Source of the DNA: Escherichia coli
Lineage (GTDB): Bacteria; Pseudomonadota; Gammaproteobacteria; Enterobacterales; Enterobacteriaceae
Strand: one strand, 5' to 3'
DNA: 64,000 bases
Assembly (NCBI RefSeq): GCF_965641715.1
Contig: NZ_OZ282453.1
Shown here: piece by piece, positions 44,144 through 44,241 of the stretch
How the letters are laid out: each line of letters begins with the position of its first letter
How positions within the stretch are numbered: position 1 is the first letter of the stretch
The notes under the pieces: generated by a model
The model's input: the letters and a program-made list of their open reading frames with translations, nothing else
What the model was told of the DNA's origin: nothing
Databases searched by the model: none
Position numbers and translations under genes: made by a program

Positions 44144-44241
44144 TGCCGGATGCGGCGTGAACGCCTTATCCGGCCTACAAAACCCTTCAAATTCAATAAA
44201 TTGAAGAGTTAACGTAGGCCTGATAAGCGTAGCGCATCAGG
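44144..44241. repeat. BIME: two REP elements in opposite orientation 3' of gcd
   Basis: gccggatgcggcgtgaacgccttatccggcctac (44144..44178) and gtaggcctgataagcgtagcgcatcaggc (44214..44241) match the REP consensus. Confidence 0.85.

Follow-up and report, generated by a model that had tools for sequence, protein, structure and literature searches.

BIME-1 elements of E. coli consist of one Y and one Z1 palindromic unit (REP) in inverse orientation, occur in single copy over ~140 bp, and hold between the two units a long conserved L linker that frequently contains an IHF site (PMC3333891; PMC1187871). These linkers bind IHF (PMC3333891), and the elements are known to be present in some isolates and absent from others (PMC1187871). 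REPs situated between convergent genes are reported to terminate transcription in both directions, partly with the help of Rho, to stabilise 3' ends, and to go along with higher expression of both genes (bioRxiv 10.64898/2026.03.23.713779). TnpA_REP, the REP-associated transposase, cuts at C|T dinucleotides (PMC3333891), and the natural target of IS621 is ATCAGGCCTAC (PMC11208160). It is already established that BIME-1 elements exist, that they show presence/absence polymorphism, that they are linked to strain-specific loops, and that ISs use them as targets. Here we describe one such element in the spacer between the convergent genes gcd and cueO of an E. coli genome, where it adjoins an additional ORF. 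The stretch analysed, hereafter the window, comprises 64,000 nt.

The REP pair and its mosaic

Downstream of the gcd TAA (44104–44106), the window holds 38 nt, TGCCGGATGCGGCGTGAACGCCTTATCCGGCCTAC, a 35-nt linker, GTAGGCCTGATAAGCGTAGCGCATCAGGC, 17 nt, and then the stop codon of a minus-strand ORF (44260–44262). The first of the two units (44144–44178, plus strand) is a Y-type REP that agrees with the published Y consensus at 34 of 35 positions and ends in CCTAC, and the second (44213–44242, minus strand) is a Z1-type REP without a single mismatch to the published Z1 consensus (30/30). No match to the Z2 consensus was obtained when the window was compared with the three consensus sequences (Y, Z1, and Z2), which were taken from the methods of an independent paper (PMC11208160). 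REP consensus matches were found in none of 100 dinucleotide-preserving shuffles of the window. According to the inverted-repeat listing, the units are arranged tail-to-tail, with CTAC and GTAG facing the linker. Folding assigns −21.3 kcal/mol (z −4.9) to the hairpin of the Y REP, an imperfect palindrome with one internal mismatch, −13.2 kcal/mol (z −4.6) to that of the Z1 REP, and −58 kcal/mol (z −5.9) to the entire element. A query containing the REP pair matched a median of at least 39 places per E. coli genome, as expected of a highly repeated family, and the pair in the window is extragenic, located between the gcd stop and the stop of the ORF. An earlier note on this DNA had recognised two REP units of opposite orientation between the gcd stop and an extra ORF; the consensus matches bear this out, and its coordinates were right to 1–2 nt. 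The repeated mosaic is wider, spanning 153 nt (44107–44259) that comprise a left outer motif, the Y REP, the L linker, the Z1 REP, and a right outer motif.

Every feature by which BIME-1 is recognised in sequence is present, i.e., one Y and one Z1 unit, inverse orientation, a single copy, and a long L linker. No other REP tail occurs in the 64-kb window, and the gcd-cueO pair consequently stands alone as a single copy rather than as part of a tandem array. BIME-2, which consists of tandemly repeated Y and Z2 units joined by short S linkers, is ruled out by the lack of Z2 and of tandem copies in the window. REP hairpins are common to the window element and to BIME-2/REP325 (naRNA4) arrays, but the naRNA4 model stays below threshold on the Y REP of the window, which has no Z2, no S linker, and no array. 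Like known BIME-1 elements, the element in the window is extragenic, lies at the 3' ends of convergent genes, and is present in some strains and absent from others, with nothing essential being different. We confirm that it is a canonical, already known E. coli BIME-1 (also named RIP or RIB).

The outer motifs and the linker are parts of the repeat in their own right. The left outer motif (~38 nt, 44107–44143, plus strand) contains a small hairpin, CAAAG-TGCG-CTTTG, at 44126–44139, and its last 31 nt have a second occurrence in E. coli, where they likewise adjoin the left side of a Y REP, this one located downstream of yiiF. Because of this recurrence beside the yiiF Y REP, the left motif belongs to the repeat and not to unique DNA. 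One stem pair of its hairpin is altered on both sides, from A:T to C:G, in K-12-type copies. The right outer motif AATTTCGTATTTATCAT (44243–44259, plus strand) aligns with AGATTTGCGTTTGTCAT in K-12 and AGTTTTGCGCTTTTCAT in Pseudocitrobacter. The L linker (~35 nt, 44179–44212, plus strand) has a palindrome of its own at 44185–44206, which encloses an IHF-like core, ATTCAATAAATTG (44191–44203). This core agrees at 12 of 13 positions with the IHF consensus, which we take to be WATCAANNNNTTR. The K-12 core at gcd-cueO, AATCAATGGATTG, agrees with the same assumed consensus at all 13. The deviation in the window, T for A at position 2, is the majority state among aligned BIME-1 copies, the core reading AAATTCAATA.ATTG in nine of eleven and AAAATCAAT in the K-12 copy at gcd-cueO. 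By analogy with other REPs, the linker would bind IHF. The segment 44179–44221 is matched by the Rfam model RF02751 (ES036/CssrF) with 44.6 bits against a gathering score of 37.6, and the same model also matches the linker of an independent BIME-1 copy. A literature search on the two names of this family returned CssrF only in a Shigella sRNA table and nothing relevant for ES036. Across 11 BIME-1 copies, which are related to one another and therefore serve for description only, the four palindromic modules remain paired in 92% of cells. Within these 11 related copies the linker stem and the left-motif hairpin show two-sided changes that preserve pairing (G:C to U:A and A:U to C:G).

Allele classes of the gcd-cueO spacer

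On the left, the element is preceded by gcd, encoding quinoprotein glucose dehydrogenase (41716–44106, plus strand, 796 aa, running from MAINNTGS to PDDVN; identified from the ORF list and RefSeq orthologues). The last residue of Gcd is N in the window and K in most E. coli. This K to N change stems from a substitution at 44103, one of a cluster that is private to the strain of the window or to the lineage immediately around it (44076, 44085, 44103, 44199, 44268, 44371, 44609, 44624, and 45146) and falls in and around BIME and islet; the flanks at 38–42 kb are 100% identical to a close relative (L006). To the right of the element lies the islet ORF (44260–44778, minus strand, 172 aa; RefSeq WP_114006819.1, hypothetical protein), followed by its upstream region (44779–44956, minus strand), in which a hairpin, GCCTGTATT-ACAA-AATACAGGC, occupies 44927–44948 beside the cueO stop. 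A promoter and terminator scan, in itself weak evidence, returned neither a consensus promoter nor a consensus terminator in 44779–44956. The spacer ends at cueO (44957–46510, minus strand), which encodes a multicopper oxidase of 517 aa ending in GFTTV, with an extra Thr codon relative to the GFTV terminus in K-12. The extra Thr codon is also seen in ORF-bearing Pseudocitrobacter. The cueO gene is mosaic even when the window is compared with L006, a near-identical relative, identity being 94–98% in 45282–45872.

The product of the islet ORF carries a signal peptide and is secreted. Because no Pfam or NCBIfam family scored above threshold on it, only the predicted fold is informative. The AlphaFold model (pLDDT 84.5) has a PsbP/DcrB/Mog1-like fold with CyanoP (2xb3) as best match (E 4e-8, TM 0.62–0.68) and a further match to DcrB (6e8a), and we regard the product as a putative PsbP-like periplasmic protein based on this model. 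It belongs to a small family of Enterobacteriaceae (K. oxytoca group, Citrobacter, and Kluyvera) that occupies the gcd-cueO slot across genera. The dN/dS of the ORF is ~0.5 between the window and Pseudocitrobacter. In Escherichia sp. E1V33 (L051) the ORF is cut to 126 aa, and the Y REP lacks one base; the truncation suggests that the gene is decaying in some carriers.

K-12 MG1655 carries an orthologous BIME-1 between gcd and cueO, which likewise starts after the gcd stop, measures 153 nt, and has homologous outer motifs. This orthology is established by alignment with a K-12-type genome, since RefSeq NC_000913.3 annotates no repeat feature at this place. Relative to the K-12 copy, the window differs at 11 of 35 linker positions, several of them paired, with the palindrome being kept. 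Differences are far larger to the right of the element, where K-12 has 48 nt with the ancestral terminator hairpin and the window has 697 nt with the ORF; the stretch 44779–44956 stands in place of this hairpin, ATGCCCGGAGAGATCCGGGCAT. Among 5426 complete E. coli genomes, 3048 carry the BIME and 2377 are without it, which together accounts for 5425, and in the BIME-less genomes the gcd stop is followed within a few bases by the same hairpin. BIME plus islet is found in three of the 5426, all of them members of one Swiss calf-farm clone. The assumption that the BIME goes with the islet had to be abandoned in view of these counts (3048 genomes with the element versus three with the islet): because K-12 carries an orthologous BIME-1, the element is not specific to the islet.

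The hairpin of the BIME-less allele, TAACCAT(T)AATGCCCGG...CCGGGCAT, is common to E. coli and Salmonella enterica arizonae; the hairpin of Citrobacter sedlakii resembles it without being identical and stands in a context that differs slightly. In most of the 86 Enterobacteriaceae species reached by a scan from the 3' end of gcd, the spacer is short and has no ORF. Since the BIME-less state is shared with Salmonella and most species have a short, ORF-less spacer, the BIME-less and ORF-less state is ancestral, and BIME-1 is a later insertion into the ancestral gcd/cueO spacer. ORF-less species such as a Pseudocitrobacter MAG (L027) and P. vendiensis (L096), and the loci L015, L023, and L029, hold in this slot a palindromic repeat of the type CCCTCTCCC...GGGAGAGGG or genus-specific REPs. 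Because the slots of other species hold other repeats, the spacer between the convergent gcd and cueO genes serves intergenic repeats in general as a landing site.

Breakpoints, exchange, and rearrangement

Homology to K-12 spans the Z1 REP and the right outer motif up to 44258/44259 and ends at the stop codon of the ORF, 17 nt past the Z1 REP. The right outer motif is the final stretch homologous to K-12, and the left breakpoint of the islet lies at its end. The right breakpoint falls within the last cueO codons (44957–44966) and not at a REP. The adjacency of BIME and islet described in the earlier note is exact when the whole mosaic is considered, as its outer edge at 44259 meets the ORF stop at 44260. 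A comparison of the K-12 breakpoints with the REP boundaries, which the same note had proposed as a check, gave a divided result: the left breakpoint coincides with the edge of the mosaic, 17 nt beyond the Z1 REP itself, and on this side the check favours the note's proposal, whereas the right one lies in cueO codons.

Carriers of the islet ORF, which draft genomes hold on about 100 contigs, comprise rare E. coli, E. whittamii, unclassified Escherichia, and an unclassified Pseudocitrobacter that shares with the window both the arrangement gcd, BIME-1, ORF, cueO and a spacing of 153 nt. Islet-bearing and islet-free E. coli alleles and Pseudocitrobacter all have a mosaic of exactly 153 nt that begins immediately behind the gcd stop; in E. 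whittamii an orthologous block of equal length is set off from this stop by the remnant of an inserted tnpB. Synonymous divergence (dS) between the window and Pseudocitrobacter is 0.115 for the ORF compared with 0.91 for gcd and 2.2 for cueO, and between the window and a divergent Escherichia (L007) it is 0.009 for the ORF compared with 0.35 for gcd and 0.44 for cueO. Because the dS of the ORF is far below that of its flanks, the islet is much younger than they are and has been exchanged horizontally between species and genera. With its dS of 2.2 against 0.91 for gcd, cueO is unusually diverged from Pseudocitrobacter. Co-transfer of BIME and ORF is likely; it counts against it that, outside the REPs, the element is somewhat more diverged between the window and Pseudocitrobacter (~21%) than the neutral sites of the ORF (~10%). 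The BIME-1 of Pseudocitrobacter is of the E. coli type; the other REPs in its 12.5-kb locus, a small sample, are of a related but different type (GCCGGATGGCGC...).

Two carriers allow the endpoints of exchanged tracts to be located. In L007 the tract of low divergence extends from ~43984 to 45070 and ends within gcd and within cueO, which is the signature of ordinary homologous recombination in conserved flanking genes. A second L007 junction in the left motif (sites 44103, 44109, and 44117) was considered and set aside, as the states at these sites may be private to the lineage of the window and L006. The islet-bearing strain 33F4 is identical to K-12 over 44056–44171, including the derived C...G state of the left-motif hairpin, and is of the islet type from 44137 on, its divergence from the window dropping from 4.6% on the left to 0.6% on the right. 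Because identity to K-12 reaches 44171 and the islet type starts at 44137, the crossover lies within 44137–44171, i.e., within 35 nt made up of the last 8 nt of the left motif and the first 27 nt of the Y REP. In this one clear case, a REP acted as the recombination joint, although a lone REP-internal crossover could be due to chance. The dS values of L007 and Pseudocitrobacter, together with the endpoints in gcd and cueO (L007) and in the Y REP (33F4), agree with what allele exchange predicts, a low-divergence tract in more diverged flanks with endpoints in conserved sequence.

The gcd-cueO BIME has been rearranged in several other strains. In the laboratory-derived E. coli EC0880B_R3 (L012, ~1420–2790), IS621 is inserted at its known target site in the Z1 REP of the orthologous element, in the layout GTAG/.../AGGCCTGATAAG, and the yiiF BIME-1 of E. 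coli HS carries IS621 at the same REP position (L013, 1290–2400). The IS621 target ATCAGGCCTAC is contained in the Z1 REP of the window as well; compared with REPs serving as targets of this bridge-RNA-guided member of the IS110 family, the window thus has the target in common but harbours no IS, and the islet has no IS features. E. coli 3-72 (L101, 608–863) has the left-motif hairpin and the Y REP duplicated. A strain from laboratory evolution, E. coli ESM2.2 (L102, 608–684), has lost 124 nt including both REPs and kept the left motif, the deletion lying between direct repeats of TTCATGCC, of which one falls at the Y REP and the other at the stem of the native terminator. Escherichia sp. MOD1-EC7003 (L095, 2667–3524) possesses eight tandem 107-nt units of the BIME-1 type (Y, L, Z1) between gcd and cueO, and Rfam naRNA4 passes its threshold on the unit junctions. 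This array contrasts with the description of BIME-1 in the literature as single-copy. Finally, E. whittamii Sa2BVA5 (L056, ~2890–3590) has a truncated, interrupted tnpB of the IS200/IS605 family between the gcd stop and the left motif, in which OrfB_IS605 and Cas12f1-like TNB domains are recognisable; its REPs are decayed, and its ORF is 89.5% identical to that of the window at the amino acid level. These five further independent rearrangements mark the gcd-cueO BIME as a local hotspot, which fits the role of BIMEs as a major source of intergenic polymorphism.

Relation of the element to the islet

The most satisfactory explanation, which we consider probable, is that BIME-1 is the known 3'-end element, serving at this locus as a homology block and rearrangement hotspot, and that the islet is an alternative allele moved by homologous recombination. 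BIME-1 would have entered the short ancestral gcd/cueO terminator spacer once, straight after the gcd stop, and it now persists in E. coli as a presence/absence polymorphism. It is the last block common to islet-bearing and islet-free alleles, and the difference between K-12 and the window starts at its outer edge for that reason. The islet, comprising the PsbP-like periplasmic ORF, the new hairpin, and the extra cueO codon, would represent an alternative gcd-cueO allele that moves among Escherichia lineages and between Escherichia and Pseudocitrobacter via homologous recombination in the conserved flanks, and the ~35–40 nt of perfect identity at the Y REP would be one site where crossovers are resolved. 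Ordinary homologous recombination cannot have produced the original join of BIME and ORF, as the allele classes have unrelated sequences beyond the right end of the BIME; one illegitimate event at the BIME edge, with an anchor of cueO homology at the other end, would suffice. The evidence favours the BIME as a landmark at the boundary, in which crossovers fall occasionally, over the BIME as the mechanism of islet gain or loss.

Adjacency might also lack mechanistic meaning, convergent spacers simply tolerating both BIMEs and accessory genes, a coincidence that we deem possible but the lesser bet. Roughly 30% of E. coli convergent gene pairs hold a REP (bioRxiv 10.64898/2026.03.23.713779), palindromic repeats of other kinds occupy this spacer in Enterobacter, in Salmonella, and in further Pseudocitrobacter, and the exchange tract of L007 ignores the BIME, all of which would be expected of chance neighbours. 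However, chance does not readily account for a breakpoint that matches the mosaic edge to the nucleotide, a crossover inside the Y REP in 33F4, and five independent rearrangements at this very element.

We find it unlikely that the allele classes reflect loss rather than gain, with BIME plus ORF being old in Escherichia, the K-12 allele arising when the ORF was deleted or replaced at the edge of the BIME, and the islet surviving as a relic. The occupation of the gcd-cueO slot by the ORF family in several genera at ~40% identity marks it as an old tenant; the combination of BIME and ORF also occurs in E. whittamii, Escherichia sp. E1V33, and Pseudocitrobacter, and the more diverged copy with decayed REPs in E. 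whittamii suggests age. However, the K-12 sequence to the right of the BIME is the ancestral hairpin found in BIME-less E. coli and in Salmonella, which cannot be derived by deletion from the islet allele. The short, ORF-less spacer of most of the 86 Enterobacteriaceae species speaks against loss as well, and the dS of the ORF, 8 to 40 times below that of the flanking genes, argues for recent transfer and not for vertical retention.

The proposal in the earlier note that REPs provide a mechanism for gain or loss of the islet stands only in part: the crossover of 33F4 in the Y REP speaks for it, and the L007 tract, which ends in the flanking genes, against it. In a stronger form than that of the note, breakage by the RAYT/TnpA_REP enzyme or another REP-specific recombination at the BIME edge joined the foreign ORF, with the BIME as insertion site, which we judge to be improbable. 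The exact position of the left breakpoint at the outer end of the 153-nt mosaic is consistent with such a process, and alleles that share the BIME and are unrelated to its right require one illegitimate join at the edge. Cleavage by TnpA_REP occurs within BIMEs and in their surroundings, at distances that can exceed 400 nt (PMC3333891), and the gcd-cueO BIME is a proven target, given the IS621 in its Z1 REP in EC0880B_R3, with duplication, deletion, and eightfold amplification on record at this locus. On the other hand, the junction ...ATCAT/TTACTC... has no CT on either strand and so offers no C|T cleavage site, no repeats or ends flank the islet, and its right end lies inside cueO codons. 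Distant homologues of the ORF (~40% identity) in Klebsiella oxytoca, K. spallanzanii, Kluyvera, and a Citrobacter MAG occupy the same gcd-cueO slot without any REP, next to ordinary terminator hairpins, and a cueO homology anchor combined with an illegitimate join suffices without REP chemistry. An extension of this proposal has a similarly slim chance of being correct: breakage directed by RAYT or induced by the hairpins may make the outer edge of BIME-1 a favoured place for illegitimate joins, a foreign gene may have been grafted there, and the resulting cassette of BIME-1 and ORF may then have travelled between Escherichia species and into Pseudocitrobacter. If this were true, the REP pair would be both a portable block of perfect homology and a ready bidirectional 3' end for an adjacent incoming gene. 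An islet borne by an IS or transposon can be dismissed, as no terminal repeats, target-site duplication, or transposase were found at its ends, the left end being the ORF stop and the right end lying inside cueO codons, and the islet consists of one ORF and a hairpin.

Under the favoured reading of a 3'-end element within an exchangeable allele, the hairpins of the BIME would serve the convergent gcd and ORF transcripts as two-way 3' ends, giving protection from exonucleases and partial termination. The promoter and terminator scan, again weak evidence, identified no terminator-like site between gcd and the ORF other than the BIME and no consensus promoter for the islet ORF. Most likely, the BIME supplies the 3' end structure for both transcripts.

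Taken alone, the element matters little, as this exact element exists in K-12. Its value is that of a worked example, in which one slot occurs in three allelic states (without a BIME, with only a BIME, or with both BIME and ORF) with breakpoints defined at the nucleotide level, and in which one crossover is resolved to 35 nt in a REP and five further rearrangements are recorded at the same BIME. The gcd-cueO spacer therefore offers a natural test bed for asking whether REPs bias the ends of recombination tracts and how a REP pair serves two convergent transcripts.
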